Sequence record: NC_103192.1
DNA length: 64,000 nt
Strand: one strand, 5' to 3'
Source of the DNA: a phage
The stretch's first letter is position 1. Each line of letters starts with the position of its first letter. Below the pieces are notes generated by a model. That model made no database searches and was not told where the DNA came from. It was given only the letters and a program-made list of their open reading frames with translations. Position numbers and translations under genes: made by a program. This document shows positions 2,446 to 46,988 of this stretch, piece after piece.

Positions 2446-2512
2446 AAATTATCAACACAGGGGGTTGCAAAACCTCCTTTGGCGTGATAAAATAATCCAC
2501 ATGGGGAATAAG

Positions 2513-2932
2513 ATGCCACAGGAAGAAATGATTTCCTACGAAATCATCTACGAGCCTGACACTAAAGATGCTCACGGTGAGTGGATGAGTAAAGACACCA
2601 TCAAAAAGGCTAAAGATAACTGGGACGCAGCATACGCCGCAGGCCTAGTTTCTGAAAACCTTTTCCACTTGACCTCTACAGATGCTTTCACCATTGAAAA
2701 GACGTGGATTCAAGAAGAGTTTGATGTTGTAGTAATTGGTACTGAGCAGGTCATCAAGGCTGGCTCTTGGGTTGCTAAAGTTAAATATAACAATCCTGAA
2801 TTATGGGAAGCTAAGAAGGCTGGCATTGTTGGTGGACTAAGCATTCAGGCAACTGGTAATGTTGATGAAGAAACTGGAGAGATCACCAACGTAAACTTCG
2901 GGATCAGTGTTGTAGAAGAGGGCAATGAGTAA
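2513..2932 (+). CDS. XkdF-like protein (putative prohead protease or scaffold-associated)
   Basis: motif YEIIYEPDTKDAHGEWMSKDTIKKA resembles the XkdF/DUF2213 phage family; start uncertain (ATG at 2501, 2513 or 2528); stop overlaps next ATG (TAATG). Confidence 0.35.
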   Translation: MPQEEMISYEIIYEPDTKDAHGEWMSKDTIKKAKDNWDAAYAAGLVSENLFHLTSTDAFTIEKTWIQEEFDVVVIGTEQVIKAGSWVAKVKYNNPELWEAKKAGIVGGLSIQATGNVDEETGEITNVNFGISVVEEGNE

Positions 2933-3912
2933 TGTCTGAAAAAACAATCACTATTAAAGAGAAAGGGATTGCCCTGTGCCATAAGGCGCAAGGCTATAGC
3001 GCTAACAATCGGCCTGTATCTCTTTTAATGAAGAGCGATCTTAAGCCTGAGCAGTTAACAGACGATATTGTTAAGGCACTTCGCCAAGTTACTGTGGAGC
3101 TCAGTTTTGAAGAATACCTGCGTCGTTTTTTCGATATGTGGTATGACGATGCTAAGGCACTGGCTCACCTGCTTGGGTTCGAGATTGAGGAAGAAGCTTG
3201 GGCAAAAGAACACCCAGATTGGGAGTGGGCACAGGCTGATGCAGAGGCTTGTGTGCAGTGGTTAGAAGAACGTTGTGATAACGTAACCATTCACAAAGCT
3301 GCTAAAGAAGGTAAAGATTTAAGTATTGTTGACCAATACACTCTGCTGAAAACCCAACAAGTTTTTGAGCAGATGACCGCTGATCTCTTCGATGAAGAAG
3401 GGAAACTTATTAAAGCGGCACAGGAAACCACAGAAGAAGTTGTTACAGACGCTGTGGACAATGTTGATAAATCCGCAAATACCGAGGAGAATCCGGTGGA
3501 AGACGTAACCAAGTCTCAAGAGTACCTGGACCTGCTGAAACAGTTCGAAGAACTGAAGGCTACCAATGAAAAAGCTGAAGAAATCATCAAGGCTCAGGTA
3601 GAAGTTGAAAAAGCTAAAATGCTGGAAAAAGCTCAAGCGTTAAGCTTCGCTACTGAAGAAGATCACACAACTCTGGTCGAATTCATGCTGGACAAAGCTA
3701 ATGCTTCTGTTGTTGCATTGCTGGAAAAAGCCCAAGCTCGTATTGCTGAACTGGAAGCTGAAGTTGAAAAAGCTAAAGATGAGTTCGCAACTACCGAGCA
3801 AGGCAAAGATGGTGATGTCGTAGTAGATGACATTGCTAAATCTGCTGAAGATATTATTGCTGAAAACGTCGCTAAAGCTCTGGCTCGTGCACGTAAAGAA
3901 TCTAATAAATAA
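2932..3912 (+). CDS. scaffolding protein
   Basis: 326 aa, highly acidic, long Glu/Lys/Ala coiled-coil stretches (AEEIIKAQVEVEKAKMLEKAQ...), located between portal and capsid genes. Confidence 0.55.
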   Translation: MSEKTITIKEKGIALCHKAQGYSANNRPVSLLMKSDLKPEQLTDDIVKALRQVTVELSFEEYLRRFFDMWYDDAKALAHLLGFEIEEEAWAKEHPDWEWAQADAEACVQWLEERCDNVTIHKAAKEGKDLSIVDQYTLLKTQQVFEQMTADLFDEEGKLIKAAQETTEEVVTDAVDNVDKSANTEENPVEDVTKSQEYLDLLKQFEELKATNEKAEEIIKAQVEVEKAKMLEKAQALSFATEEDHTTLVEFMLDKANASVVALLEKAQARIAELEAEVEKAKDEFATTEQGKDGDVVVDDIAKSAEDIIAENVAKALARARKESNK

Positions 3913-3933
3913 TCTGCTTAATAGGGGAAAATA

Positions 3934-4308
3934 ATGATCACCACTCAATATTCTGATATCGTGCTCGGCAAAGTAGATGCAAGCGATGCAGGTTTCAACT
4001 TTAAAGAGATTGAAATTACCCTTACTGCTGATCACGTTGCTGGCGCAGTAGTTACCAAAACTGGCACTCTGGCTAATCAAGATGGCACAGATACCTTTGG
4101 TGTACTGGTTGACCGCGCTCTTCTGCCTGACGATTCTGGTAAAGTTAATCTGGCAGAGCCTCTGAAAGTTGGCGAGAAGTATAAACTGGTTGTTGCTGTT
4201 CGTGGCGTTACTTTCGCTAAAAAACATCTTAAAGTGGCTGGCGGCACGGCTGCACCTGCTGCAGTTCTGGAAGCTCTCGAAGCCAAAGGCAACAAAGTTC
4301 AGGAATAA
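3934..4308 (+). CDS. head decoration-like protein
   Basis: 124 aa, Gly/Ala/Val-rich small protein immediately upstream of the major capsid gene, lambda gpD-like position. Confidence 0.4.
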   Translation: MITTQYSDIVLGKVDASDAGFNFKEIEITLTADHVAGAVVTKTGTLANQDGTDTFGVLVDRALLPDDSGKVNLAEPLKVGEKYKLVVAVRGVTFAKKHLKVAGGTAAPAAVLEALEAKGNKVQE

Positions 4309-22433: not shown

Positions 22434-25400
22434 ATGGCTGATATTAAAGTTGTCAGAATTGAATCTCTTCCTGCCACTACTGCAGTGACAGAGGATGATT
22501 ACCTGGTTGTTCAACAACCAGACCTGACCCGTCGTGTAAAAATTGGCGATGTTGTCCATGTGGATGGGACTGTTTCTCATGTAATCTCCTTTAAGGAAGG
22601 TGGTAAGTTAAACGGCCCAATGGATTTTGCCTACTTCGAAGAGGAAGACCTCTACCTGCGTTGGAAAGGCGAATTTCCGCACACCGTTCCTGCACTGTCT
22701 TCACCTTACGCTGATGGTGGGATTACCGATGCTGCATGGATGGTATATACAGATCCGTCCTTAAGGGAGGAGCTGGAGTCTACCATTGGCGCATCTATGA
22801 TCATGACAGCCGAAGGGCAGTCTGTCCAGGATGTAATGGATGTTACGGTTCAGACAGCCAACGATGCTAAAGCACTTGCACAGCGGGTAGATTTTGGTAC
22901 AGTGCATACTGTAGGCGATGTTATTCACCTTGTCAACTTTGTTGGTCCTGCAGTTATTGAAGAGGGAAGAACTACTAACTACCCTTCTGTAGCAGCTGGT
23001 GAAAAATTTCTGAACGGTGTGGTATCTCGTCGTGATACTACAACTGTTGATGGTATTTTCCGTGGTGCTACCTCTGGAGCCATGTATACCATTGCAGTAA
23101 CCAATGGTGTGGCAACAACAAAAAGAATAGCCCTTCGTGATGAATTTAAACGCCTGGAGGCAAACAACCCAACAAGAACAATTATCCGTGCCGGAGATGA
23201 TTTAAACACGGCAGGGTACTTGCAGCTTGATGCAACAGGTCGTTGGGGTATGTGGAACCAACAAACAGCCTCGTGGCAACCTCTTGCTATAGAGCAAGGC
23301 GGCACAGGGGCCAGAGATGCCGCAGGTGCACGCATTAATTTAGGGGCTTTCTATAAGCAACGTGCAGCCCTTGAGTCAAATTTTAATATCAATAACTTGA
23401 CTGGTAATCAGGATGGTATATACTACCAGCCGATGACTGCTTATGCAACTGAGGCAAATGGTTACCCTGCAGGTTCTGGTGCTGGTCACTTGATTGTCTG
23501 GCAGAACAATGCTAACGGCGGTACAGGTTGTCGTCAGGAATACTATCCATTCTCTAACGTAGATGTTTGGTATTTGAGAACCTATCAGGCCAACACAAAT
23601 CAGTGGACCGCATGGCAGCCGATGGTCAGACCTCGTAACGATGAGACCTTTAGATCGCACATCGGTCTTGGGTCTAGGAATTCTCCTACCTTCGGGAACC
23701 TTTACTTATCTCAAAGTTCTGCTAATGTTAAGTCGGCATCTGGCATTGTTAACGGGGACAAATACAGTGCTGACGGTGTCCTTGAGCATGGGTATAGGAT
23801 CTATTCCGAGGTAAGAGACGACAATAAGGCGTGGTTAACAATCCACCTGCACAAAGGGGCAAAAGGGTCTGAAACTCATAAATATTTAGGTTTCCGCGAA
23901 GACGGTGTATTAGACTGTCCTAAATACATGCAGGTTGGGGATCTTACTGGTCAGTTGACAAACTGGGGACTTGGAGAGTGGATTCGTAGCTCAGGAGCAG
24001 AAAGAGGCTTCTGGGGGTCCAAGAAAGCCGCCAAGATGGTCATCTGGGATGGTGGGATGGATGAGTCTGGTAACGGCACTCTGGAATGGGGTGTTTATAA
24101 CAACCGGAAGGCCAAGTGGGAACCTTTACCTCACGCCGCAGGTGGTACTGGGGCTACAACTTTAGCAGAAGCTCAAAACCTGTTTAGAATACCTATGGCA
24201 GGTGGGGTTAAGGATTTCTTAACTCTACCAAGAACAGCAGCCATGGTAGATGGTAAATATTACCCTATTATTGTAAGAACAGATCCGTACTATGCATCAG
24301 CTGTTGGGACAGATATTACAATAGTTACAAGATCCTCTGCTGGCGACGACCCTATGAACTGCGCAACACTCCAGTGTCATTACAGAACTGGTGGTTGGAC
24401 AGATCGTGGAGACTCTTTTACTGGTGTTGTAAACTTCTACCAGAACGAAAGAGCAATACTTGGCTGTGTTTCTCCTACTCGCGGAAAACAAGAGTATGTT
24501 GCTTTTTATGTAGAGGCTAGAGCTTTCCCGGTAAGCGTATATACAAGCCGAAACGTGCTTGAGGTATTTACCAGAGAAAATGACTGGCAGGTAGGGAATG
24601 TAACTGATAATCAGGACGGTGTTAAGTTTTGTGCTCCGTTAGAGTCGGCAGACTTAAATCTTGCGATCAAGGGTGGTGGTGTAACAAACACCAGACCTCT
24701 GGTTGAGTTCAAGGGAACACCTGGGTTCTATACAGGCGGTAGTACAGATCGGCACTATGTAGGCACACCTGACAGAATGGTTCTAATGAGTAAGACAGAA
24801 ATGCCTCCTGTAGAGATGTGGTACAACGGTCTTAACTACATTTGCCCAGGCAGCCAAACCACCAGGAAAGCACTGTTCTCTAACGCAGGGTTCCAAGCTG
24901 CATCGGAAGGAACAGAGGATCTGATCAACAATACCTTTACCTCTAAATGCGGTAATGGCGCTGGTCTCAAAGGTCAGGCAGAGTTCAGATCTACTCCAGA
25001 GGCTGGTCAAGTTATTGTTCGTGATGTTGTAGGTTCTGCTCACAGATTCTACAATTTCAATAAAGATGGTACTTTCTCAGCTCCTGGTGGTTTTGTATGT
25101 CATACTGGTGCAGACTGGAACAACCAGTTCGGGCCTAACAACCCGTCAAAAATAATGGCTGGCAACGTCAACGGGCCAGAAGGTTCGATGGTTGTTGGTG
25201 GACTGTCTGTGGCGTTTTCTGGGAATTATGCTTTCCAGATAGCTGGTCGCCTTGATCAGTTGTATACCAGATCTATCGAAGGTGGTACTCATAGACCGTG
25301 GAACAAAATCTTCTCACACAAAGGTGCAGGTCTTGACTCTACAGACCTAAACACTTACGATGGTACTCGTGAGGGCATTTACCACCAACCATTCGATGCC

Positions 25401-26249
25401 AACTCAACATCTGAAAGACATTACCCGGCACCATATGCTGGTCACCTAATTGTTTACCAGAACAATACAAACAATCCGAGAGGCTGCGTACAGGAGTACA
25501 TTACACGTTTTGGTGACAGATACACGCGTGTTGGTAACATGGATAGAACTGGTTCCACTTATATGTGGGAAGTTTGGCGGCATGATTCTGGTAAAGCTAT
25601 CCAGTTACGCCCGAACCGCAATGTTGATGAAACAGATAAAGAGCTGTGCATTCATGTTGGTGGTTCTGAAAATCCCAGCAACAACGGTAACTTACCTAAG
25701 GATAATGCTGTGCTCCATTATTGGGGCAACGGCAGCACAGGAAATCGTCCAAACGTGTTAGAGTTTAAGGTTCTTGACGATTCTCAAGCAAATTGGGTAT
25801 GGCATTGTGGTACCTTGCCGGATAAATCAAGATATCTTTCTGTAAACGGTGCAGTAAACTGTGTATCCGTGAACCAAAACTCTGACCGCGACCTGAAGGA
25901 TAACATAGAAGTTATTCCTAACGCGTTAGAAGCTATCCGGAAGATGAATGGCTATACCTACACTTTAAAAGAGAATGGTATGCCTTACGCAGGGGTAATT
26001 GCTCAAGAGGTTATGGAAGCATTACCTGAAGCGGTTGGATCTTTCGTGCAAAGGAAAGAGGCTCCTGATCCCACTCAAGATGGAACTCCTTTGATAACAG
26101 AGGAAAGATTCTACAGCGTGGATTACGCAGCTGTGACAGGCTTGCTTGTCCAAGTTTGTAGGGAACAGGATGATAAAATAACCGCCCTTGAGGAACAGGT
26201 TAAAAAATTGACAGAGGTTGTTACTGGGTTGCAAGAGAAACTGAAGTAA
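22434..26249 (+). CDS. long tail fibre with C-terminal intramolecular chaperone (peptidase S74-like) domain
   Basis: 1271 aa; N-terminal anchor shared with the 19130 gene product; C-terminal ~140 aa (...NQNSDRDLKDNIEVIPNALEAIRKMNGYTYTLKENG...) matches the self-cleaving chaperone domain of endosialidase/T5 L-shaped fibre type proteins. Confidence 0.7.
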   Translation: MADIKVVRIESLPATTAVTEDDYLVVQQPDLTRRVKIGDVVHVDGTVSHVISFKEGGKLNGPMDFAYFEEEDLYLRWKGEFPHTVPALSSPYADGGITDAAWMVYTDPSLREELESTIGASMIMTAEGQSVQDVMDVTVQTANDAKALAQRVDFGTVHTVGDVIHLVNFVGPAVIEEGRTTNYPSVAAGEKFLNGVVSRRDTTTVDGIFRGATSGAMYTIAVTNGVATTKRIALRDEFKRLEANNPTRTIIRAGDDLNTAGYLQLDATGRWGMWNQQTASWQPLAIEQGGTGARDAAGARINLGAFYKQRAALESNFNINNLTGNQDGIYYQPMTAYATEANGYPAGSGAGHLIVWQNNANGGTGCRQEYYPFSNVDVWYLRTYQANTNQWTAWQPMVRPRNDETFRSHIGLGSRNSPTFGNLYLSQSSANVKSASGIVNGDKYSADGVLEHGYRIYSEVRDDNKAWLTIHLHKGAKGSETHKYLGFREDGVLDCPKYMQVGDLTGQLTNWGLGEWIRSSGAERGFWGSKKAAKMVIWDGGMDESGNGTLEWGVYNNRKAKWEPLPHAAGGTGATTLAEAQNLFRIPMAGGVKDFLTLPRTAAMVDGKYYPIIVRTDPYYASAVGTDITIVTRSSAGDDPMNCATLQCHYRTGGWTDRGDSFTGVVNFYQNERAILGCVSPTRGKQEYVAFYVEARAFPVSVYTSRNVLEVFTRENDWQVGNVTDNQDGVKFCAPLESADLNLAIKGGGVTNTRPLVEFKGTPGFYTGGSTDRHYVGTPDRMVLMSKTEMPPVEMWYNGLNYICPGSQTTRKALFSNAGFQAASEGTEDLINNTFTSKCGNGAGLKGQAEFRSTPEAGQVIVRDVVGSAHRFYNFNKDGTFSAPGGFVCHTGADWNNQFGPNNPSKIMAGNVNGPEGSMVVGGLSVAFSGNYAFQIAGRLDQLYTRSIEGGTHRPWNKIFSHKGAGLDSTDLNTYDGTREGIYHQPFDANSTSERHYPAPYAGHLIVYQNNTNNPRGCVQEYITRFGDRYTRVGNMDRTGSTYMWEVWRHDSGKAIQLRPNRNVDETDKELCIHVGGSENPSNNGNLPKDNAVLHYWGNGSTGNRPNVLEFKVLDDSQANWVWHCGTLPDKSRYLSVNGAVNCVSVNQNSDRDLKDNIEVIPNALEAIRKMNGYTYTLKENGMPYAGVIAQEVMEALPEAVGSFVQRKEAPDPTQDGTPLITEERFYSVDYAAVTGLLVQVCREQDDKITALEEQVKKLTEVVTGLQEKLK

Positions 26250-33362: not shown

Positions 33363-34049
33363 ATGGCAGAGATTAAGTCGGATGTTAACCACATCCACAC
33401 TCTGCCAGATTTTGTTCAGGGGGGTCTTGATTACCTCCCTGGGGATTTTCTGGCTGAGAAGGTTAATTTAGTCACATTCTTAACCGTATACCTTAAAAGG
33501 TTGGAGAATGTTGATAAAATGCTGGTAGGCTTGGCTGAAGGAAGATTGCTTAACAATGCCAGCGGGAGATACCTTGACGAAGTTGGTAATCAACTTGGTA
33601 TTCTTAGGAATGGTCTTTCAGACGCGGATTTTCGTGCTACGCTGATTATTCAGCAGGCAGCATCATCAAGAGGTGGTACTCGCGAAGATGTCATCTCCAC
33701 CTTGCGACAATTGTTCGGAAGAGACAATTTCGATACGTGGAAAGGTGACAACTTTAGATTTGACATAAATATTAGAAAAACTTGCTTCGACATATTACAG
33801 TCCATCGATCAGATCTTAGATATGCTGCCATTGCCTTGTCATTTGCGTCTTACAGAATCGCAAGGGCAAGCTTTTGGTTTTGAAGGAGACTCTACAGCTC
33901 TTGGCTTCGGATCAGTGTGGGAAGAAAACCAGTTCGGAGTTGGTGGGCTGGCTACTTTGCTGTATGTTCCTGACGTAAGACCTGATTGGGACACCACAAC
34001 TATTTATTGTGAAAGTATTACAGTAAACGCAACTAGACAGGAGGGTTAA
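33363..34049 (+). CDS. putative baseplate wedge protein (gpI-like)
   Basis: 228 aa, immediately downstream of the J-like baseplate gene; synteny only. Confidence 0.4.
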   Translation: MAEIKSDVNHIHTLPDFVQGGLDYLPGDFLAEKVNLVTFLTVYLKRLENVDKMLVGLAEGRLLNNASGRYLDEVGNQLGILRNGLSDADFRATLIIQQAASSRGGTREDVISTLRQLFGRDNFDTWKGDNFRFDINIRKTCFDILQSIDQILDMLPLPCHLRLTESQGQAFGFEGDSTALGFGSVWEENQFGVGGLATLLYVPDVRPDWDTTTIYCESITVNATRQEG

Positions 34050-36121
34050 TGGCAACAGCTGTTTTTAAACCTTACCGTGATTACTCTACGATGGCTGCAC
34101 GGTTTCATTACCGCACAGTTCAGGATACTGCAGTTCCAGGTAGGGATTATGATCATGTTGAGGGAGATGTAACTATCCCGGTTGGAGCAACCAGTATTGA
34201 GATCCCTGTAGAAATTGTTGACAAATTGCCAAACAGGTTGCCAAGAAGCTTCTTTATGGAGTTTTCATCAAACTCCCAAGGGGTTATGATTGGAACACAA
34301 AGAGCGAAATGTACAATAGTTTCAGATGAGAATCTTGACAGAATATCTTGGGATACCGTTGAGGAGAGAATGTTTCACCCAAGATATTGGGTTACAACCA
34401 CACAGCAGACTGAAAGCACCTGCATTGTTGCGGATAATAACTGCTGTATTAACCGTTTAGTGTCAAGAACATATGGAGGCATGGCTGGGTGCATTTGGGA
34501 AACAGTTGACAAGTATGACCATTTCGGCATTGGATTTGATGATCACTACGAGATGAGAAACACCAAGCTTTGGTTCAGAATGTCAATAACCAATGCCAGC
34601 AACTTCTCCACCCCTGAAAAGATGATTATGACTGTAGACCTTGTTGACGGCACAATCATCTATGTTCCTTTAGCTCAATATGCTGTCAGCATCTCAGAGG
34701 ATAAGAATGTTGCAGAAATTCATATTGATTTCGAGGACTGCGTCGGGATGGACCAGAACAACAATATGATGGGTGTTGATCCTCGGCAGGTGAGAAAGAT
34801 TTTAATACCGCTTATGCCTAAAGATTGGGTAAGTAATAGCACAGACCCAAGAACGGAAAATGTAGAGTGCGAGTTGCGTCTAGATCTGCTTCAGCCGGAC
34901 ACAGGCTGGAAAATGATGCAACTTAACAATATCCAGGTGAAAGAGCACGACGTCGGGATCTGCACAGCATATGACGATATGTGGAACGTATCCCCTTTAA
35001 GGGTGTTGAGCAATATCAAGCGTCTGGGCTATACCGGAACCATAAATCATTATGTTGGTATGAGTCATTATTATGACTACACATGGTCAGGAACCCAATG
35101 GTCTATAAACAAAACAGGGGCTCTAAACGCTGCAGCTTATAAATGGCATGATGATTTTATGTACAATGCCAAACGACATGACTTCGACGTTATGCAGTCT
35201 GTAAGCTTCGAGCTTTATAGCGATGCCTGTCCGTTGGAATGGACCCAGAGAGACTGGAACGATAACTACGCTAAAACAGGATATACACCTTGTAGCTACC
35301 TCCTGTCTCCAACCATTGAAGAGGGTATGAATTTCCTTACTGCAGTATTTAAGAATTTTGCATCAGCCGCTATGAGAAACAACCTGCCAGTGATTATGCA
35401 GGTTGGTGAACCGTGGTGGTGGTACAATACCGATACTCGTAGACCTTGTATTTATGATTACCCTACAAAGCAGGCGTTTTATGATGAGACAGGTGAGTAT
35501 GCATTAGATATTGGGACTATTGACGATCCTAAAACTGGTGGTGTTTACGACAAGTATGTAGCATTTTGTCGTGGTAAGCTTGGCGCTCGTATTGCGGCTA
35601 TTTCAAAGGCAATAAAAGCACACGCTGCATCGGCTCAGATGACAGCTTTACTGTTTTTCCCCACTATTATGGAAACCGAGCTTACGCAAAAACTGAACCT
35701 TGCTGACCAATATAAAAAGGAAGCAGGCGCTCTTGATTTCTTCTGCACTGAGTGCTACGATTGGGTGATGCAGGGAGGTATTGAAAAGGCAAAAGAGTCT
35801 GTAAACATACCTATCGTTAAGTTAGGTTGGAAACCGTCTGAAATACAATACCTTGCAGGGTTCGTTCCTAGCAAAGAGCTTGCTCCGGTATATGGCTACG
35901 ACCCAACCAGGAATTACCAAGAATTTTTATGGAGATGTATTTGCGGAAACATGGCAACCATAGAGTATAGATACCCTGAGGTAAAACAGTATGTGTGGGC
36001 ATACCCGCAAGTAATGTCTGACAGCATCACTGTTACCGCCAGAGATTCTACCGTGCTTCATATGGGACAGGTTGCTCTGAAAGGGTATGTAGAAGATGTT
36101 GTCCCGCCAGACTTCTCATAA
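34049..36121 (+). CDS. tail fibre/spike protein with N-terminal Calx-beta-like domain
   Basis: 690 aa; residues ~15-95 (FHYRTVQDTAVPGRDYDHVEGDVTIPVGATSIEIPVEIVDK) fit the Calx-beta pattern; Trp/Tyr-rich C-terminal body. Confidence 0.5.
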   Translation: MATAVFKPYRDYSTMAARFHYRTVQDTAVPGRDYDHVEGDVTIPVGATSIEIPVEIVDKLPNRLPRSFFMEFSSNSQGVMIGTQRAKCTIVSDENLDRISWDTVEERMFHPRYWVTTTQQTESTCIVADNNCCINRLVSRTYGGMAGCIWETVDKYDHFGIGFDDHYEMRNTKLWFRMSITNASNFSTPEKMIMTVDLVDGTIIYVPLAQYAVSISEDKNVAEIHIDFEDCVGMDQNNNMMGVDPRQVRKILIPLMPKDWVSNSTDPRTENVECELRLDLLQPDTGWKMMQLNNIQVKEHDVGICTAYDDMWNVSPLRVLSNIKRLGYTGTINHYVGMSHYYDYTWSGTQWSINKTGALNAAAYKWHDDFMYNAKRHDFDVMQSVSFELYSDACPLEWTQRDWNDNYAKTGYTPCSYLLSPTIEEGMNFLTAVFKNFASAAMRNNLPVIMQVGEPWWWYNTDTRRPCIYDYPTKQAFYDETGEYALDIGTIDDPKTGGVYDKYVAFCRGKLGARIAAISKAIKAHAASAQMTALLFFPTIMETELTQKLNLADQYKKEAGALDFFCTECYDWVMQGGIEKAKESVNIPIVKLGWKPSEIQYLAGFVPSKELAPVYGYDPTRNYQEFLWRCICGNMATIEYRYPEVKQYVWAYPQVMSDSITVTARDSTVLHMGQVALKGYVEDVVPPDFS

Positions 36122-39517: not shown

Positions 39518-41263
39518 ATGGCGCAAGACATGACAAGCTTCGAGCAGGCGGTAGATCAAGTAATTGTTGATTCTGAACGTTTGCACTTGATTGTCAACGG
39601 TAACGCTGTGGATGAAGTTGTCGTAGAGGATGGGACCACTATCCCTACGGTACGAAAAGCCATGCTTGACACCCTTTATTTTAAAACGCCGCCGATCCCT
39701 TGGGCGTATGGTGCATCCACAACAGTTTTTAACCAGTTGTATGAGTTTAAAGGAGATACGGGCACTCAGTGGTGGTACGCCCCAGCAGCATCAAAATCTA
39801 ACCCAGTTAGGATGCCAGCAGATCCTTCAGAATCTCCGAACTGGAGATTATATACCGATTCTGCAGTAATGGCAAAATACTACGCAAAACTTAACAGTCC
39901 AAGGTTCGAAGGTGACCCGAGAGTACCTACACCTCCAATGGACGATAAGTCCGAGTCTATAGCAAACACAGAGTTTGTTGTTGACTATGTGGATAGTATA
40001 TTCAAAGCCATGGAGGGGATGAAAGTAACTGTAGGGTCTTTGGTGGTAAAAGGTCTTACAGAACTTGCTAACACCATAGTTGGTGGCACCCTTACCTTGC
40101 ACGGGCCTGTTAATGGAGCGGATTCTACTGCACGCTTCAGGAACCTAATCCTTACTGCAAATACTTCTACATTGACTTTTGCGTGGAGCGATCCTAAGCA
40201 TGCAGACTGGAGAAGCACAGAGCTGCAACCTCATGAAGTATCCACCCACAGAGTTATAGCTGACACTATAACTTCTGGGAAACCAGTGGCTAATAACAAC
40301 GATGTGCATTTTGATGGTCTAGGTAATAACTTTTTTGACTACGTGTACATTCGTGGTAATGCCATGAAGGCAGCCACCGAACCGACATTGCAGGTTGATG
40401 GGACCACTAGGGTTAAGAACCTTGAGGTGACAGGCACCGTTACAGGGATAACCTACTCTGTAGATGGCACCATGATCTACCCTAGCTATATTGAAAGCAC
40501 GGGAGATGCACTGATCAATGGAGATTTAGAGGTTGGCGGGTCTGTAGTCATTCGTGGCACAGCATCTGTCCAGAACATATCTTTAAATACTCTGAGGGTG
40601 AATGAGCGTGCCACTTTTGAAGGAGAGGGGCTTACAGCCAACAAAGGTGTAATTACCGAGCTGACAACCACCACTCTAACTGCAACAACTGCAAACTCTG
40701 AAAACTGCAACGTTACCAGAAACTTGCAGGTAAATGGAGATGTTAGTTTAAACACAGCAGGGACGGGCACTACCCACCTTCACAACCTTGAAATATCAGG
40801 TACAGTGACTGGGTGGCTGCCAGACTTCTCTAATGTCAACTTTGTCTGTAATGGCATTAACTCCAGTGGCAAGATAACCACCTCTCAAGAAATTGAAGCT
40901 GGTAAAACTATTACTGCCCCTGCTTTCCATGCAGGGAAGGTGGAGTTTGACTTAGAGGAGGCTGACGCATCTAGTGGGACATGGACACCTAACGGGCAGG
41001 CCAATATGTATGTTGTCCACGCGAAAGGGGATTTTACAATAGGGCAATGGCCTGGAACATCGGCTGAAGATAAACCTTACCCGTTCACTGCAATCATCTA
41101 TGTCATTCAGGATGCTGTAGGCCACAACGTGACCTTACACGATAAATATGCCATACTGTCGGCTACTCCTGTTATTAACAACAAAGCCAACAGTGTCACC
41201 TTGCTACAATTGACATATTGTGGTGTTGGTGATATTGTGGATGTGGTTATTGCACAACGTTAA
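39518..41263 (+). CDS. tail fibre protein with beta-helical repeats
   Basis: 581 aa; repeated NLEVTGTVTG / NLEISGTVTG type motifs typical of fibre shafts. Confidence 0.5.
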   Translation: MAQDMTSFEQAVDQVIVDSERLHLIVNGNAVDEVVVEDGTTIPTVRKAMLDTLYFKTPPIPWAYGASTTVFNQLYEFKGDTGTQWWYAPAASKSNPVRMPADPSESPNWRLYTDSAVMAKYYAKLNSPRFEGDPRVPTPPMDDKSESIANTEFVVDYVDSIFKAMEGMKVTVGSLVVKGLTELANTIVGGTLTLHGPVNGADSTARFRNLILTANTSTLTFAWSDPKHADWRSTELQPHEVSTHRVIADTITSGKPVANNNDVHFDGLGNNFFDYVYIRGNAMKAATEPTLQVDGTTRVKNLEVTGTVTGITYSVDGTMIYPSYIESTGDALINGDLEVGGSVVIRGTASVQNISLNTLRVNERATFEGEGLTANKGVITELTTTTLTATTANSENCNVTRNLQVNGDVSLNTAGTGTTHLHNLEISGTVTGWLPDFSNVNFVCNGINSSGKITTSQEIEAGKTITAPAFHAGKVEFDLEEADASSGTWTPNGQANMYVVHAKGDFTIGQWPGTSAEDKPYPFTAIIYVIQDAVGHNVTLHDKYAILSATPVINNKANSVTLLQLTYCGVGDIVDVVIAQR

Positions 41264-41272
41264 TATATCTGA

Positions 41273-41297
41273 CCGCTCCTGACGGGGCGGTTTTCTT
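41273..41297 (+). terminator. hairpin CCGCTCC-TGAC-GGGGCGG + TTTTCTT
   Basis: 7-bp stem (one G-U) read from sequence. Confidence 0.55.
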
Positions 41298-41311
41298 ATC
41301 TGGAGAACACA

Positions 41312-44300
41312 ATGCTTCCAATCCCTTTGCTAAAACTTGGTCGTCATTTCCTCGATAAGAGGGGTGGAGTTAAGGAACTTGCTGTTCTGTCATACCCAAT
41401 AGACAACAGTGACGGTACAAGCACTACAGTAGCTTATGTAAATAGCTTAGCTATACTTTTTGACGACGGTCAGCTTAATATTACTGGCTATAACAAGTTC
41501 GGGGAGTGTCGCACTGGGGATCGTAACCCTATAAACTACCCGAGCGAGACGGCCTGGAATGTTGATCATGTGTGGAGAGCAGACCGTGCGTTTGTGATCC
41601 GGACTTTTGATAACCAGTTTTTCTACATCGGTTGCACTGCAGGTCTTATCGGATCCACTGCGGCAGGTGGTAACGATGTTTGCGTAAACGAGTGGACACC
41701 TCTTCCGGAACAGATTGTTCAAGGATTGCACCTTGACACCCACCCAGAGCGCCTTATCGAGGTAATGGGTGGTATTAACAACACTGTTTGGGTTATGGCA
41801 GAGGCTGAGGGTGACGGCATTTTACACCTGTACGGGTCTGGTAACAACACCTACGGATCTTTACATGTAGATAAGAACCAGCATGCAACTCCTGTAAAGA
41901 TTGGTGAAACATCAGAAAATCCTGAAACAGGCCCTTGGAAAAACCCAAGTATCAACTGCGAGGTGCATGACAACTCTGTTATTTTCGGTGGGCCTAGAGG
42001 TTTTTGGATTGCTGGATACGACTTTCTGAGAAACAACAGTAGAAACGACCTTGTTTGGCCCCCTGCTCAGATTACTCGCAACGATTTGAAAGGCATTCCT
42101 GCAGATGAGGAGTGGAAAGGATTCATGTGTGGTCCGAACGGGGCAGTGGTTGCAACACAAAGAATGCACAGACCTGATGACCAACAACTTGTTAACGTAT
42201 TTTATGGTCAAAACGTTTGGGGGGATGATACCTGGCGTGCTTTGAATATAACCTACACCCATGAGGTGATAATGGCTCGTGGGTACGGCACAAGTGGCAT
42301 TTTCTTCAACAATGGTACTAAGCAGTATCGTGGCTTCTCTCGAAACCTGTGCAACGATATTGGCGCACAATCTGCAAACAATAACCCCCGTGCCGATTTT
42401 GTTCATTACCAGGCCCTTGCTACGGCTAAATACGTTGAGCAACGCCTCCCAGTTAGCTGGACAGAGAGTGTTTATTTCCAAGGCATTCACAGAGAAGGTT
42501 TCTTAGGGACCTTTACTGTTGTTAATGGTAAACTTTGGTGGTCAGGCATCCCAAGGGGAAGTTTTGCAGGTTCTAATAACCTGTTTGGTGGCAGACTTAA
42601 TAGTCAAGGGTTCACAGAGGTTCCTGAGAATTGGTATAAAAATGTCCCAGTAGATAGTTGGGGTGTTGATGATATTTTTGACGTTAACGGTGTTAGCAGC
42701 GTTAGCAATATCTACATTGGTGACACGGTAAAGATGAAATTGAAGCCTCAGCCAGAGGGAGCTACGTTCATTATTGACAAGATTGAACTGGTAAATGCTG
42801 CAGGTACGGTTGTTACAGATGCAAATTACCAATTCTCCACCAACTGGAACCACGGCGGGGCCAACGAAGTTGTTGTTACTCAGTATAACAGGAATGTGAA
42901 CAGACGTGGCCTGTACTCTGTAAAAATAACCTATCATGACAAGCATGGCACAGGCAGAACGCACACGACAAGGAACTTGAACTGGAACACCATAGTTCCT
43001 GCGTATCCTTCTGACGGTAAGTGGCATACTGTCGGTAGAAACAAACAGTTCCATGTTAATGACACTGTATACTTCGGGCTGAATGGGACTCAGCCTGCGG
43101 TAGAAGGAGATACATCGTATATGGTCCGACTCCACAGAATGGATGGTGGATCAGTCACTTATGATGTTACCCAAGAGATTTATGATCAGAGACGAAATAC
43201 CTACAACAACTTAGTGCAGACACAGGCCGTATGGGAGTTCAACCCTAACGGCAGAGGTGGTAAAATGTTGCAGGTTAACGAGCAAAACGGAACGTCGTTG
43301 ACTGTCCACGAACACCCAGACCCTTGGCCTGATCCTGGAAAACCTCACCCAGGTGCTCGTACACTGAAAATTGTCAGCCATGATGCAGGATATTTCGGAA
43401 TACGCTGGGAAGCCACAGTAAGATATGCCGACGGGACAACAAACAACATAGGGATTACACTTGGGGGCACCAGTGAGGATAACTCACTGAAAATTGCCTA
43501 CACCCCTAGAGGCATCTCTATTGACAATATGGATGTTGTTCGCAACGGTTACGGAGATGTGAACATCAAAGTTACTCTTGGTGAACATCTTGGCGGGGAA
43601 AGGATCATCATGTACGCCTTTGATCACGACCCACGCACTGACGGAACCTATGCAGACCAAGCGTGGAGCTACCTGATAAGCGCACCTGAGCCAAATACCA
43701 AAGAATTCTACTACGGTATGAAACGGGATGTGTGCAAGAAAACAGGGACACATGACTGGATTGCAATCTGCGTTAAAGATGAACGTACCGCTTGGGACGA
43801 GCCTGTTAACAGATGGTTCATAGGAATTCCCACTCGAAGTGATAAATACGTTGAAGAATATATTGTATGCATGGGCGGCACCAACCTCAACATGTGTTGG
43901 AACGAGGATGCAAACAAATACTCTGATTACGATTATATGAGGGATTACTCTTGCAATCAATGGTTTAACCAAACCGGGTATGCTAATCGACAGTCAAGAG
44001 TAAACCCTGCAATCTTTACAGATACGCAGGTTTTCTTGACAAAACAGGCCAACGAGGTTCAGACCTTCAAGAACAAATACGACCCTAACAAGTGGTTTTA
44101 TAACTGTTATGGCGCATTTTTCTGGGGGCCAGGGGAACTGCCTAACGGGGGATCTTGCTTCGAGGCTGCAACTTACGCCAGTGACAGGTTCATGGGGCAG
44201 GTTAAGAAGTACAAGATAATCCCCGGGCCTGAAACTTTAGGCAACGCTGTTGACCCATATATCATCATGACAGCACTAAGATCGAACATGGACGGAACAT

Positions 44301-46945
44301 CCCTATCTATGCAAGTTCCAGTAACAAACGGGTACAAACGTGTTGTGATGATCATTAAGTGCGACTTAATAGGTAAGCAAGTTCTTGCAGAAAACGGAAC
44401 CTCAACACATCTATTCGAGACTGCTCTGCATTATCAGTTTGCTGATTCACCTTTTGCAGGGGATAAGAGAATATCTGATACAGACAATACTCGATGCAAG
44501 AAATTTATGCTTGGTGGTGGATGGTGGTGGTATGAATTTGATTTAACAGACAAATTCACTGACACGTCTAAAGTGGTGACAGGGCTTCGTCTAGATCTTG
44601 GCGAAAACATGCACAAAAGTGTTTGTGATGGCACCTACGGTGACCCAACAATCTACTTAAAGTATGTCTCTTTTGAGCATCCGGAAGATGTTGTTTACGG
44701 TCCAAAACTGAGATTGTTTGGCAGTTGGATTGCAAAAGACAGGGTAGGCATGGGTAAAAAGGTAAGAGGGTTCTTGGTTGATGCAGGAACAGAAGACATG
44801 CTGGTTAATGCAGTGTGGCCTGAATTACCTGGGACTCAGTGGGATAACTCAGCCAAGTCCATAAACTGGTTCAACATTCACAGAGCTATGTGGACAACTA
44901 ACTGCTACCTGTGGAAAGAGTTGAATGACGGCGCTTTCGGGTTTACAGGTGGCAGAAGAATGGCAATCATTTGCTGGACAACGCTGCAAAGATGTTATGA
45001 CCATGACTACGAGATTGGGGGTAGGGCATGGAAAAATATTAGGGATAGAATCATAACTAACTTCGCAGACCCTAATGGTGGTGGAGCGTATGGCTTCGAC
45101 TGCAGCAGGCTCATCCATTTGAACGGGTCCTCTGCATATAAGAAAGAGGGTTACTCTGGATCTATGATTGAGTGGGGCCTGGTGAAAGATGCTCGCGTAT
45201 TGATGGGTCAACAACTTGCTGCTGCAATAGGACCTAACGCAGTGCAGTCTGTTAAACCAGCGTGGTTCGATATCCCAATATGGTCATCTGGAACACCAGG
45301 AACTGCGGCAATCAACCCTACCACTGGGGATCTGGAAATCTCTTGGGAGGACTTGAAGCAGGTTGGTGGCTGGGATAAGACAGGCTACCAGGTACAATGG
45401 TGGAGATCTGACGGATCGTTAGCGGCTGATGAGTTTGTTAAGGACAATTTCTACACTATGTCCTCTGCAAAAGCACAGCAATTGTTTGGTCAGGCAACTC
45501 CGTCAACGATCACCATGTCCATGTGCTGTAAAGACAACAGGACTGGAGCCTTGGGACCGAGGGTTGCTAAAGTTTTCTCAGGTATTAAATGGAATCTCCC
45601 TGTTCAAAGTGTTTCATGGAAGCAAATAGGTGATAACAAGCTGCTGGTTACTCCTGCCTGTCAGTTCAACGCAACTCTTAACGTTGATCCTGCTGTTGCG
45701 GCAAACTCAGCTAAAGCTTCTGACTTCTCTGTGTCTAACACTGCTATGGCAGATGTGAGGAAGATTGACACACTGAACGCCAGAATTACCTGTAAAAACA
45801 CTTATGGCACATTCCAGATCATCAACAACTTCACAGATGCTGATTCTAAGGTAGTGAGGACAGCAAGCCAGACTATGCAGTTGGGCACTCTGGCATACTC
45901 TGCCCGGATCACTGAACAATCTCCTACTCTTCAGGGTGGGGGTGTTGGTAAGTTGATCACAACACCTGTGTGGAAGCCAAATGAGTGGGTTGTGTTTGAT
46001 TTGACTGTAGACTTCTCCAGTGACAATAACTGGACATGGGTAAGGAATTGCTTGTCACAGTTGATGGGTGGTCCAAGCTCTGTTAGTGATAGCCACGACT
46101 CTACTGACCCCAGCGTGTTCCAGGTTGGTAAAACTCACCCAGAGACGGGAGCAACGTTGCCTGACAGGAAGTATGCTTTGGTTTGCATCTCTTACGGAAA
46201 AGCAGATGTCACCTTCTCAGGGACGCACACTTATAACGGAACTTACAACTTCTCAAGGAAGTATAGTCTCAAGGCAGGTAACATTATAGATGAAGTTGGT
46301 GCGTTGTATAACCCAGGTAACGGCATAGGGATTGTGGGTGGTAAACTGCAGATGCAGGAACCTTCTATTACCCCTTCCAATGTGTCTGGGATTAGAAAGA
46401 CTTGGGAAAGCAGTAATACCAACATTGCAACAGTGGATGCCACCACAGGACTGGTAACATTTAAAGCTACTGGGAATGTCACCATAAAGTTTGTAGTTAC
46501 TGATGATGCAGGGCGCAAAACGTCTTCAACATCTTTTACTGTCAAACAGATGGCACCACAGTGGAGAATGTGGATAGGTACAGCAACAAACGGGGCATAC
46601 CCTAATCCGGCAGGTACTTCTGGTATGAAGACTTTCTCTACAAGCAAACCGATGGAGTACGGCAGCGGTCCTAAGGTAGGGCAGATGGTGTACTTTGGTG
46701 CGTATATTCCTGAAATTATAGGGCTTCCGAGAAGTCAGCTTCAGTTGCTGTTTGGGGCTGGTGTTGACGATCTTGCCACTTTCGGGTATAGCGACAACAT
46801 CGAGGCTGCAAGGAGTTCAGGATGGGTAGGGTTCAGAATGGAGTCTGGAAAGGAAGGCAGGATTCTAGGGACAGCCTCTATAGGTGTTATGTTCCCTGGT
46901 GACCAGCAGTATCGTCTGGGAGCCTACGCGACTTTCTCTCTTTAA
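41312..46945 (+). CDS. giant virion-associated protein (1877 aa) with possible N-terminal beta-propeller and C-terminal Big_2-like Ig domain
   Basis: single uninterrupted ORF with TGGAGAA RBS; N-terminal repeats resembling RCC1-type blades (LFDDGQLNITGYNKFGECRTGD; HLYGSGNNTYGSLHVD); Ig-like segment near residue 1700 (SNVSGIRKTWESSNTNIATVDATTGLVTFKATGNVTIKFVV). Confidence 0.6.
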   Translation: MLPIPLLKLGRHFLDKRGGVKELAVLSYPIDNSDGTSTTVAYVNSLAILFDDGQLNITGYNKFGECRTGDRNPINYPSETAWNVDHVWRADRAFVIRTFDNQFFYIGCTAGLIGSTAAGGNDVCVNEWTPLPEQIVQGLHLDTHPERLIEVMGGINNTVWVMAEAEGDGILHLYGSGNNTYGSLHVDKNQHATPVKIGETSENPETGPWKNPSINCEVHDNSVIFGGPRGFWIAGYDFLRNNSRNDLVWPPAQITRNDLKGIPADEEWKGFMCGPNGAVVATQRMHRPDDQQLVNVFYGQNVWGDDTWRALNITYTHEVIMARGYGTSGIFFNNGTKQYRGFSRNLCNDIGAQSANNNPRADFVHYQALATAKYVEQRLPVSWTESVYFQGIHREGFLGTFTVVNGKLWWSGIPRGSFAGSNNLFGGRLNSQGFTEVPENWYKNVPVDSWGVDDIFDVNGVSSVSNIYIGDTVKMKLKPQPEGATFIIDKIELVNAAGTVVTDANYQFSTNWNHGGANEVVVTQYNRNVNRRGLYSVKITYHDKHGTGRTHTTRNLNWNTIVPAYPSDGKWHTVGRNKQFHVNDTVYFGLNGTQPAVEGDTSYMVRLHRMDGGSVTYDVTQEIYDQRRNTYNNLVQTQAVWEFNPNGRGGKMLQVNEQNGTSLTVHEHPDPWPDPGKPHPGARTLKIVSHDAGYFGIRWEATVRYADGTTNNIGITLGGTSEDNSLKIAYTPRGISIDNMDVVRNGYGDVNIKVTLGEHLGGERIIMYAFDHDPRTDGTYADQAWSYLISAPEPNTKEFYYGMKRDVCKKTGTHDWIAICVKDERTAWDEPVNRWFIGIPTRSDKYVEEYIVCMGGTNLNMCWNEDANKYSDYDYMRDYSCNQWFNQTGYANRQSRVNPAIFTDTQVFLTKQANEVQTFKNKYDPNKWFYNCYGAFFWGPGELPNGGSCFEAATYASDRFMGQVKKYKIIPGPETLGNAVDPYIIMTALRSNMDGTSLSMQVPVTNGYKRVVMIIKCDLIGKQVLAENGTSTHLFETALHYQFADSPFAGDKRISDTDNTRCKKFMLGGGWWWYEFDLTDKFTDTSKVVTGLRLDLGENMHKSVCDGTYGDPTIYLKYVSFEHPEDVVYGPKLRLFGSWIAKDRVGMGKKVRGFLVDAGTEDMLVNAVWPELPGTQWDNSAKSINWFNIHRAMWTTNCYLWKELNDGAFGFTGGRRMAIICWTTLQRCYDHDYEIGGRAWKNIRDRIITNFADPNGGGAYGFDCSRLIHLNGSSAYKKEGYSGSMIEWGLVKDARVLMGQQLAAAIGPNAVQSVKPAWFDIPIWSSGTPGTAAINPTTGDLEISWEDLKQVGGWDKTGYQVQWWRSDGSLAADEFVKDNFYTMSSAKAQQLFGQATPSTITMSMCCKDNRTGALGPRVAKVFSGIKWNLPVQSVSWKQIGDNKLLVTPACQFNATLNVDPAVAANSAKASDFSVSNTAMADVRKIDTLNARITCKNTYGTFQIINNFTDADSKVVRTASQTMQLGTLAYSARITEQSPTLQGGGVGKLITTPVWKPNEWVVFDLTVDFSSDNNWTWVRNCLSQLMGGPSSVSDSHDSTDPSVFQVGKTHPETGATLPDRKYALVCISYGKADVTFSGTHTYNGTYNFSRKYSLKAGNIIDEVGALYNPGNGIGIVGGKLQMQEPSITPSNVSGIRKTWESSNTNIATVDATTGLVTFKATGNVTIKFVVTDDAGRKTSSTSFTVKQMAPQWRMWIGTATNGAYPNPAGTSGMKTFSTSKPMEYGSGPKVGQMVYFGAYIPEIIGLPRSQLQLLFGAGVDDLATFGYSDNIEAARSSGWVGFRMESGKEGRILGTASIGVMFPGDQQYRLGAYATFSL

Positions 46946-46952
46946 CAAGGGG

Positions 46953-46988
46953 TAAATAAAAAGGGGCCAAACGGCCCCTTTCTTTTTA
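46953..46988. terminator. bidirectional intrinsic terminator between convergent operons
   Basis: stem AGGGGCC-AAAC-GGCCCCT flanked by an A-run upstream and T-run downstream. Confidence 0.7.

Follow-up and report, generated by a model that had tools for sequence, protein, structure and literature searches.

Phages of the rV5 type rank among the most frequently isolated phages of Escherichia coli and are candidate agents of therapy and biocontrol. They adsorb by an apparatus of several fibres, only some parts of which have been linked to genes, and the large protein gp27 of rV5 itself has been described as a 'conserved hypothetical protein' of 1878 amino acids (aa) and 208 kDa with a Big_2 domain (Kropinski et al. 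2013, PMC3606486, Table S3). It is deposited under accession YP_002003529 as 'Ig-like domain-containing protein' (Ig, immunoglobulin), a name that recurs among the records of this gene along with 'structural protein with Ig domain' and, in BASEL, 'lateral tail fiber protein with intimin domain'. We found no functional, host-range or structural study of gp27 or of its short homologs in the literature. Here we analysed the counterpart of gp27 in a 64,000-nucleotide stretch of phage DNA (sequence record NC_103192.1; the whole stretch is called the window), a gene at positions 41312-46945 whose 1877-aa product is the largest of the virion module. This giant protein is a Big_2-bearing phage structural protein and a diverged member of the RCC1-like superfamily, not an intimin, and we tentatively propose that it acts as a low-copy, non-essential accessory adhesin fibre at the periphery of the tail or baseplate, a reading that we prefer to its rivals while holding it with some doubt.

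With megablast, the giant gene was found in 120 phage records, its nucleotide identity being about 80-97%, and all of the 107 records that cover at least 80% of it are Vequintavirus (rV5-like) myophages. The window is a Vequintavirus, and the gene is, by its place in the gene order, the ortholog of rV5 gp27. Length, position and domains are shared with rV5 gp27 and its orthologs in more than 100 Vequintavirus genomes; nucleotide identity with these genes is 80-97%, sampled regions of the rV5 and window proteins are 88-99% identical, and the orthologs differ only in their alleles, chiefly at aa 241-280 and in the C-terminal domain. The family is narrow, with 15 clusters at 90% identity and lengths of 1711-1976 aa, and a member at 41% identity occupies the same syntenic position. 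The gene is already known and widely sequenced; its function is not. Some database entries of this family call for comment. Fifteen 'UNVERIFIED' MG0656xx records ('Campylobacter phage A142, A141, A13b ...') are rV5-like Vequintavirus genomes carrying the gene at about 92% identity, and their Campylobacter jejuni host label is likely to be wrong or to reflect contaminating coliphages. A 318-aa 'hypothetical protein, partial [Eggerthella lenta]', encoded on a 955-bp contig, matches part of the N-terminal domain at 99% identity and is probably a phage contamination of a bacterial assembly. Moreover, a cluster representative with 97% identity carries a precomputed PF26918.1 assignment that was absent from our local Pfam scan of the window protein; this family, from a newer release of Pfam, may already cover a portion of the giant protein.

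The gene is a single open reading frame (ORF) on the + strand, which starts with ATG and comprises 1877 codons plus the stop without internal stops, as seen in the ORF listing and the translation. A GGAG Shine-Dalgarno motif lies at 41302-41305 (+), 7 nt before the ATG. The gene is the final one of a long + strand block before a convergent junction with opposite-strand genes; a strong hairpin terminator occupies this junction, the GC skew flips there directly 3' of the gene, and the RefSeq entry of rV5 has bidirectional rho-independent terminators annotated at the site corresponding to 46960-46981. Therefore, the ORF is real and closes the structural operon, in agreement with an earlier reading made from the letters alone (the sequence-only reading), which had pointed out this single 5.6-kb ORF. 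The same reading had named sequencing errors that split the ORF as a potential refutation. An ORF fused by sequencing errors was rejected, since the ORF is intact in the window as well as in most of the 107 near-full-length records.

The N-terminal part of the protein, in which repeats resembling RCC1-type propeller blades had been suspected, is its most conserved portion and shows RCC1-like homology at several levels. Taken alone, the window protein stays below the Pfam gathering thresholds: PF25390 matches aa 44-199 of the N-terminal 480 aa with an E-value (E) of 8.4e-5 and 22.5 bits against a curated cutoff of 150, RCC1_2 reaches 13.1 against 22, and PF00415 is not reported. The same 480 aa match phrog_4219 'regulator of chromosome condensation' (7.4e-8) and phrog_11922 'tail protein' (5.6e-29). 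We then used a family profile made from a 7-sequence alignment of N-termini (the giant protein and its positional orthologs), and a search of all PDB sequences with this profile returned RCC1-like domains (RLDs) as the only significant matches, namely HERC1 RLD3 (1.7e-9), UVR8 (3.7e-9), HERC2 (5.8e-7), RPGR and RCC2. In addition, PF25390 was matched by all seven family members (best 7.2e-12), the window protein by itself reaching 7-8e-5, and PF00415 by four of them (best 2.8e-8). A Foldseek search with the low-confidence AlphaFold2 (AF2) model of the N-terminus likewise gave RCC1-like domains as the sole non-Ig class, with 133-242 columns aligned. A word-indexed homolog search with the N-terminal 470 aa found only two close matches and added no diversity.

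The extent of this domain is indicated by the comparison with gp245 of phage ESCO13, in which BLASTP aligned aa 1-197 (4e-29) and, as a second segment, aa 393-440 with ESCO13 360-405; therefore, the homology spans the whole domain of about 445 aa. The domain length of about 425 aa and the blade-7-like ESCO13 match are compatible with seven blades, with the AF2 model being of low confidence: its predicted local distance difference test (pLDDT) values are mostly 35-70 at aa 20-235 and below 30 at aa 235-445. Overall, the profile matches make the RCC1-like assignment of aa ~20-445 sound at the superfamily level. The homology to RCC1, the HERC1/2 RLDs, UVR8 and RPGR (PF00415/PF25390) holds at aa ~40-200 and family-wide, whereas the 'repeats' themselves rest on this family homology because blade-to-blade similarity within the region was not significant in an hhalign self-comparison. 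Highly diverged as it is, this domain is fused to an Ig-rich giant, unlike in phages W70 and phAPEC6, whose RCC1-like virion proteins (phrog_4219) possess a homologous domain that stands alone, without a fusion partner. Some phage papers propose a chromosome-condensation or DNA-packaging role for RCC1-like proteins. We rejected this role here, as the domain owes its name to the ancestry of its fold and the gene stands among tail-fibre genes, and there is no reason to expect Ran-GEF (guanine nucleotide exchange factor) or chromatin functions either. Ahead of the propeller, M1, P3, I4 and P5 are invariant across genera in the 7-sequence alignment, which makes the first 19 residues a candidate docking peptide; no signal peptide or transmembrane segment was found at the N-terminus of the protein sequence.

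In the AF2 models, the remainder of the protein is made up of some eight beta-sandwich modules and an alpha/beta region of 490 aa (aa 841-1330). Two segments were modelled (aa 1-850 and aa 840-1877) from multiple sequence alignments of only 16-17 close relatives, giving mean pLDDT values of 49.6 and 54.3; of these models, only the beta-sandwich modules are trustworthy, while the second half of the propeller and the helical core do not. For this reason, the fold searches were dominated by Ig strings and the orphan central domain was unclassifiable. The sole Pfam match on the whole protein is PF02368 (Big_2) at aa 1681-1732, with E = 4.1e-8 and 33.5 bits, above the cutoff of 22.8, which bears out the Big_2-like domain near the C-terminus noticed by the sequence-only reading. 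In the PDB sequence search, only intimin and Sap Ig domains were found, at the Big_2 position. By fold, the C-terminal 550 aa match the Ig strings of cadherin, the S-layer protein Sap, PrgB and NUP210 in Foldseek, and the matches in BFVD include Ig-rich phage proteins, among them Hoc, PVP-SE1 gp40, major tail proteins that bear Ig domains and an Ig-containing major head protein. Within PHROGs, the C-terminal 285 aa match phrog_215 'structural protein with Ig domain', a family of the head and packaging category. As to the Trp/Tyr/Asn-rich body that had been described, the protein is indeed mildly enriched (W 3.0%, Y 4.2%, N 6.9%), but these values lie within the range of the window's other tail-fibre proteins.

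As to the intimin in the BASEL name, this one Big_2 domain resembles intimin D1/D2 (PDB 1e5u and 1f00, E 0.003-0.006; aa 1686-1734). An intimin-like adhesin was nevertheless rejected: the matches are generic Big_2 matches, the score of the intimin-type model NF033627 is 23.6 bits where its cutoff is 1400, NCBIfam returned nothing beyond such intimin-type Big_2 matches, and the giant protein has no beta-barrel anchor, LysM or C-type-lectin tip as intimin and invasin do.

The position of the gene is shared beyond the genus. In four related genera, a member of this positional lineage lies at or near the point where the tail-fibre cluster ends and the convergent genes follow: it is the last cluster gene in Vequintavirus (this window, 1877 aa, and also the relative L003), in Phapecoctavirus (ESCO13 gp245, 891 aa) and in Seunavirus (GAP31, KE22 and SPLA5a, 567-609 aa), and it lies near the cluster end in Justusliebigvirus (phi92 gp152, 202 aa, with two Big_2 domains only, followed by gp153). 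The short homologs ESCO13 gp245/phAPEC8 (891 aa), PVP-SE1 gp40/GAP31_232 (567-609 aa) and phrog_11922 share the M-x-P-I-P N-terminus and the RCC1-like domain with the giant protein. By tblastn, the identity of aa 1-200 is about 40% with the N-terminus of the Phapecoctavirus 'tail protein' and 25-34% with that in Seunavirus and Cronobacter phages; the identity between the short homologs and the giant protein (25-40%) is confined to the N-terminal domain. ESCO13 gp245 matches PF25390 at 7.9e-11; one RCC1 repeat in it passes the gathering threshold, and two stretches match Big_2, a domain also found in the giant protein, while PVP-SE1 gp40 is annotated as Ig-like and matches the Ig-rich fold. In contrast, the Vequintavirus middle of about 1000 aa, comprising three extra beta-sandwich modules, the orphan region aa 841-1330 and the FN3-like modules, is missing from the short homologs. 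At the fibre-cluster end of phi92 (11321-12983 of L004), the 202-aa gp152 is accompanied by the 295-aa gp153, which has a weak SASA sialate O-acetylesterase-like match (E 0.008); a 2026 cryo-electron microscopy (cryo-EM) paper on phi92 does not discuss gp152 or gp153.

The sequence also diverges along its length. Among distant relatives, conservation decreases towards the C-terminus: identity is mostly 70-80% over aa 1-450 in all relatives but only about 14-40% over aa 1450-1877 (the last ~430 aa) in all except the two closest, and the beta-sandwich insert at aa ~950-1124 falls into two allele classes. Eight close Vequintavirus orthologs, compared in 40-aa windows, have a mean identity of 94%, with hot spots of variation at aa 241-280 and 921-1000 and the strongest ones at the C-terminus (aa 1761-1800 and 1841-1877; 77-78%). 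N- and C-terminal alleles assort independently, as in rV5 with its 88% identical N-terminus and 99% identical C-terminus, and therefore indicate recombination within the gene. Furthermore, disrupted copies occur in three deposited genomes. In ECP26 (vB_EcoM-ECP26, MK883717; L013), a TAT-to-TAG amber at codon 617 leaves ORFs of 616 and 1227 aa without a frameshift. APCEc02 (KR698074; 3380-6052 of L012) lacks nucleotides ~1302-4245 of the gene, that is aa ~435-1415, and is annotated as three ORFs; it keeps the propeller (aa 1 to ~434) and the C-terminal ~460 aa, with frameshifts. In V18 the gene is fragmented, possibly owing to assembly quality. These split ORFs in relatives, at least one of them a clean amber, argue for dispensability and not for an artefactual ORF, and thus hint, on the strength of the sequenced alleles, that the giant protein may be dispensable. 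Frameshifts aside, the APCEc02 remnant resembles the short architecture of the ESCO13/PVP-SE1 type.

Taking these observations together, we suggest the following mode of action for an accessory adhesin fibre. The M-x-P-I-P peptide and the RCC1-like propeller (aa 1-445) would dock the protein onto a conserved baseplate or fibre component, and the roughly eight Ig/FN3/Big_2-like beta-sandwich modules would form a flexible, probably non-trimeric stalk resembling beads on a string. The orphan domain, its variable insert and the variable C-terminal beta domain might then make weak, reversible contacts with surface polysaccharides, which would raise the encounter rate ahead of the dedicated receptor-binding fibres. 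The protein would be non-essential on laboratory hosts. The position at the cluster end in four genera, with a shared N-terminus and a changing distal part, supports such a fibre, as does the N-to-C conservation gradient, which is typical of N-terminally anchored fibres; the Ig-string matches in Foldseek and the Big_2 domain favour an adhesin, and the disrupted alleles of ECP26, APCEc02 and V18 support its dispensability. Accordingly, of the options left by the sequence-only reading, the large adhesin is favoured, and its view that the protein is atypical for a simple fibre stands, as no domain of the coiled-coil, collagen, beta-helix/tailspike, Tail_spike_N or S74 kind came up in Pfam.

Known accessory proteins offer partial parallels. 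The Ig modules of T4 Hoc and the Big_2 domains carried by lambda gpV and further tail proteins (Fraser et al. 2006) are exposed on virions, non-essential and thought to bind carbohydrates weakly. The giant protein is far larger than these Ig accessory proteins, contains a propeller and an orphan domain, is encoded in the tail-fibre cluster and probably has a polarity opposite to that of Hoc; its similarity to Hoc lies at the fold level, among many Ig-rich proteins, and involves no sequence homology. Lambda Stf and the T5 L-shaped fibres are dispensable side fibres that were lost in laboratory stocks, and they are trimeric and fibrous and have chaperones. By analogy, the giant gene could encode an accessory adsorption device that tolerates nonsense and deletion alleles in the same way, but no trimeric fibrous or chaperone features were seen in its product.

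Evidence from virions bears on this proposal in both directions. The mass spectrometry (MS) table of the rV5 virion lists locus 27 with three peptides, nine spectra and 3.1% coverage, and a later paper repeats gp27 as an MS-detected rV5 protein; we count this detection, together with the RCC1-like proteins that are abundant in W70 virions, for presence in the virion. The sensitivity of that experiment was low, since the bona fide structural protein gp37 has only four peptides. The MS support for gp27 in the virion is weak. Several points speak against an accessory adhesin fibre. The gp27 peptides are semi- or non-tryptic, with XCorr values of 2.65-3.2 and Sp ranks of 1, 9 and 14, and they stand in the list beside the non-structural rIIA (two peptides). 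In cryo-EM, no density has been assigned to the giant protein or its short homologs, and the phi92 and phiTE papers are silent on them. An identity of about 94% among close orthologs is unusual for a protein selected by host range, the conserved N-terminus is ambiguous in that it could mean a conserved ligand instead of docking, and the disrupted alleles may be sequence errors, especially in V18 with its low-quality-looking assembly. Moreover, pLDDT is mostly below 50, and largely below 30, at aa 235-445, 840-947 and 1126-1329, and this low AF2 confidence in two key domains leaves room for a catalytic fold.

Four rivals were weighed. According to the weightiest, which we still consider unlikely, the three genuine trimeric lateral tail fibres of the Vequintavirinae include the giant protein, which would be a primary receptor-binding protein. 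The BASEL annotation as a lateral tail fibre, the location of the gene within the fibre cluster, and a conservation gradient with a variable C-terminal tip would all fit a receptor-binding protein; the gene-to-fibre assignment is also unsettled according to the BASEL paper, and fibre II of phi92 is still without an assigned gene. However, a search for trimeric-fibre modules (coiled coil, collagen, triple beta-helix, Tail_spike_N, S74 and a T4 gp12-like tip) in four overlapping segments found none at E<=10 in Pfam or PHROGs, whereas neighbouring fibre genes do show such hallmarks, and the folds here are a globular propeller and Ig beads. In addition, phi92 has three visualised fibres yet only the 202-aa gp152 and no giant protein, viable isolates carry disrupted alleles, and the receptors assigned functionally have been traced to other proteins, the deacetylase fibre for NGR/ECA being an example. 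A decoration of the capsid or neck similar to T4 Hoc, anchored with its Ig modules outward and binding mucus or cell-surface glycans, would agree with the phrog_215 match, the BFVD matches to Hoc and to a major head protein with Ig domains, and the best PDB match of a full-length family profile, a decoration protein; this last match, at E 0.25, is not significant. The gene is placed at the end of the tail-fibre cluster, outside the head module, and the N-terminal homologs are annotated as tail proteins (phrog_11922). The C-terminus of T4 Hoc is its anchoring end, whereas the C-terminus is variable here, and we regard a decoration as very improbable. Slightly less credence still is given to a non-virion protein, late-expressed and soluble or cell-associated, which might, for instance, target the host envelope during lysis or affect nearby cells. 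The rV5 MS evidence is as weak as that for rIIA, and the gene is flanked by its own terminator-like hairpins and a promoter-like site; against this, the synteny with fibre genes is kept in four genera, the related RCC1-like proteins are abundant in W70 virions, and the N-terminus lacks any export or membrane signal. Ig-domain arrays of phages are also typically exposed on the virion, as reported by Fraser and colleagues in 2006.

The second of the rivals by weight concerns the orphan central region, aa 841-1330, which could be a new carbohydrate-active enzyme (a lyase or hydrolase with an alpha/alpha-type core and an insert like a carbohydrate-binding module), which would make the protein chiefly a virion-borne depolymerase. 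We hold this to be rather improbable. The region is strongly conserved and holds many family-invariant Trp, His, Arg and Glu residues (E1161/D1162, H1190/R1191, E1234, E1279 and E1287 among the invariant positions), its predicted helices surround a beta-sandwich insert, neighbouring fibre genes are rich in glycan-processing domains, and an enzyme would be compatible with virion attachment. In contrast, neither the searches of Pfam, NCBIfam, PHROGs and PDB sequences and profiles nor the exhaustive protein search revealed an enzymatic domain, the helical part has pLDDT values of mostly 22-45, and APCEc02 lacks the entire region. The exhaustive search compared aa 681-1877 by phmmer with 1.84 billion representative proteins (cluster representatives) and yielded 671 matches at E<=1e-3; all those listed map to Big_2 save two family representatives, and no relative of aa 841-1330 outside the family was found among the matches listed. 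The region was also without a match in Pfam, NCBIfam, PHROGs and PDB profile searches. By these sequence searches, aa 841-1330 are a genuine orphan domain. The suggestion of the sequence-only reading that the protein might be an enzymatic, injection-associated one is thus not upheld, as no enzyme family matches it and nothing suggests injection.

Table 1 Features of the giant gene and its surroundings in the window (positions of the window)
Feature	Residues	Positions	Strand	Remarks
Sigma-70-like promoter match		41210-41238	+	TTGACA-17-TATTGT, extended TG; inside 3' end of the gp28 homolog; consensus match only
Terminator-like hairpin		41271-41292	+	9-bp stem with 6 GC pairs, weak T run; after the gp28 homolog, before the giant gene
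N-terminal peptide	1-19	41312-41368	+	M-x-P-I-P invariant across four phage genera
RCC1-like beta-propeller domain	~20-445	41369-42646	+	sequence-detectable core aa 44-199 (41441-41908)
Beta-sandwich (Ig-like) module	450-562	42659-42997	+	pLDDT mostly 63-87
Poorly modelled mixed region	565-735	43004-43516	+	no family matches
Beta-sandwich module	736-840	43517-43831	+	pLDDT 75-87
Orphan central region	841-1330	43832-45301	+	~12 low-confidence predicted helices, interrupted by the beta-sandwich insert
Beta-sandwich insert	~950-1124	44159-44683	+	strands modelled from ~965; pLDDT 66-84 over aa 1000-1119
Three FN3/Ig-like beta-sandwich modules	1331-1423, 1435-1539 (weaker), 1559-1655	45302-46276	+	AF2, Foldseek
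Big_2 Ig-like domain	1672-1755 (Pfam 1681-1732)	46325-46576	+	pLDDT 80-93
C-terminal beta domain	1773-1871	46628-46924	+	moderately confident model; most variable among close orthologs
Strong hairpin terminator		46960-46981	.	AAAGGGGCC-AAAC-GGCCCCTTT, then T run; at convergent junction

The giant gene may be a separately regulated or attenuated transcription unit, because a promoter match and a terminator-like hairpin lie upstream of it (Table 1). The hairpin is contained in the 48-nt gap between the gp28 homolog and the giant gene and could, from its predicted stem, be an attenuator of read-through; the rV5 annotation lists no terminator in the gap ahead of gp27. The upstream gene itself (39518-41263, +; 581 aa), the homolog of rV5 gp28, matches phrog_4549 (the abundant tail fibre W70_107), and its relative in L003 matches Pfam PF26208/PF26209 'Phage_phiTE_241_N/C'; judging from these families, it is probably a genuine baseplate-attached fibre related to a phiTE fibre. 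Two further fibre genes, at 34049-36121 and 22434-26249 (both +), correspond to rV5 gp34 and gp41, respectively. The L003 homolog of gp34 has NCTSP_N plus a TIM-barrel, and BASEL annotates this protein as a glycosidase/deacetylase fibre, while gp41 is an L-shaped fibre with an S74 chaperone. Both counterparts show classical fibre or enzyme domains, which the giant gene does not have.

Beyond the sequence-only reading, our analysis adds a firm RCC1-like assignment, a positional family spanning four genera, a delineated orphan domain and hints of dispensability. A more far-reaching pair of proposals, which could hold together and which we consider doubtful, is that aa 841-1330 form a new fold through which rV5-like phages alone would bind or cleave glycans in a new way, and that M-x-P-I-P plus the propeller form a hitherto unrecognised, genus-spanning docking module that would fix interchangeable Ig-rich adhesins to the baseplate. 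If true, the docking-module part would also explain the RCC1-like proteins of related phages, which are abundant in the virions of W70 and numerous in phAPEC6 and still unplaced in both. The practical value of the finding lies in better annotation and in a rational site for truncation or engineering, not in a new biological principle. For structural and host-range work on the rV5-like phages, it would provide three handles: a probably dispensable Ig-rich adhesin in place of a core fibre, an RCC1-like N-terminus found in four genera, and an orphan centre.

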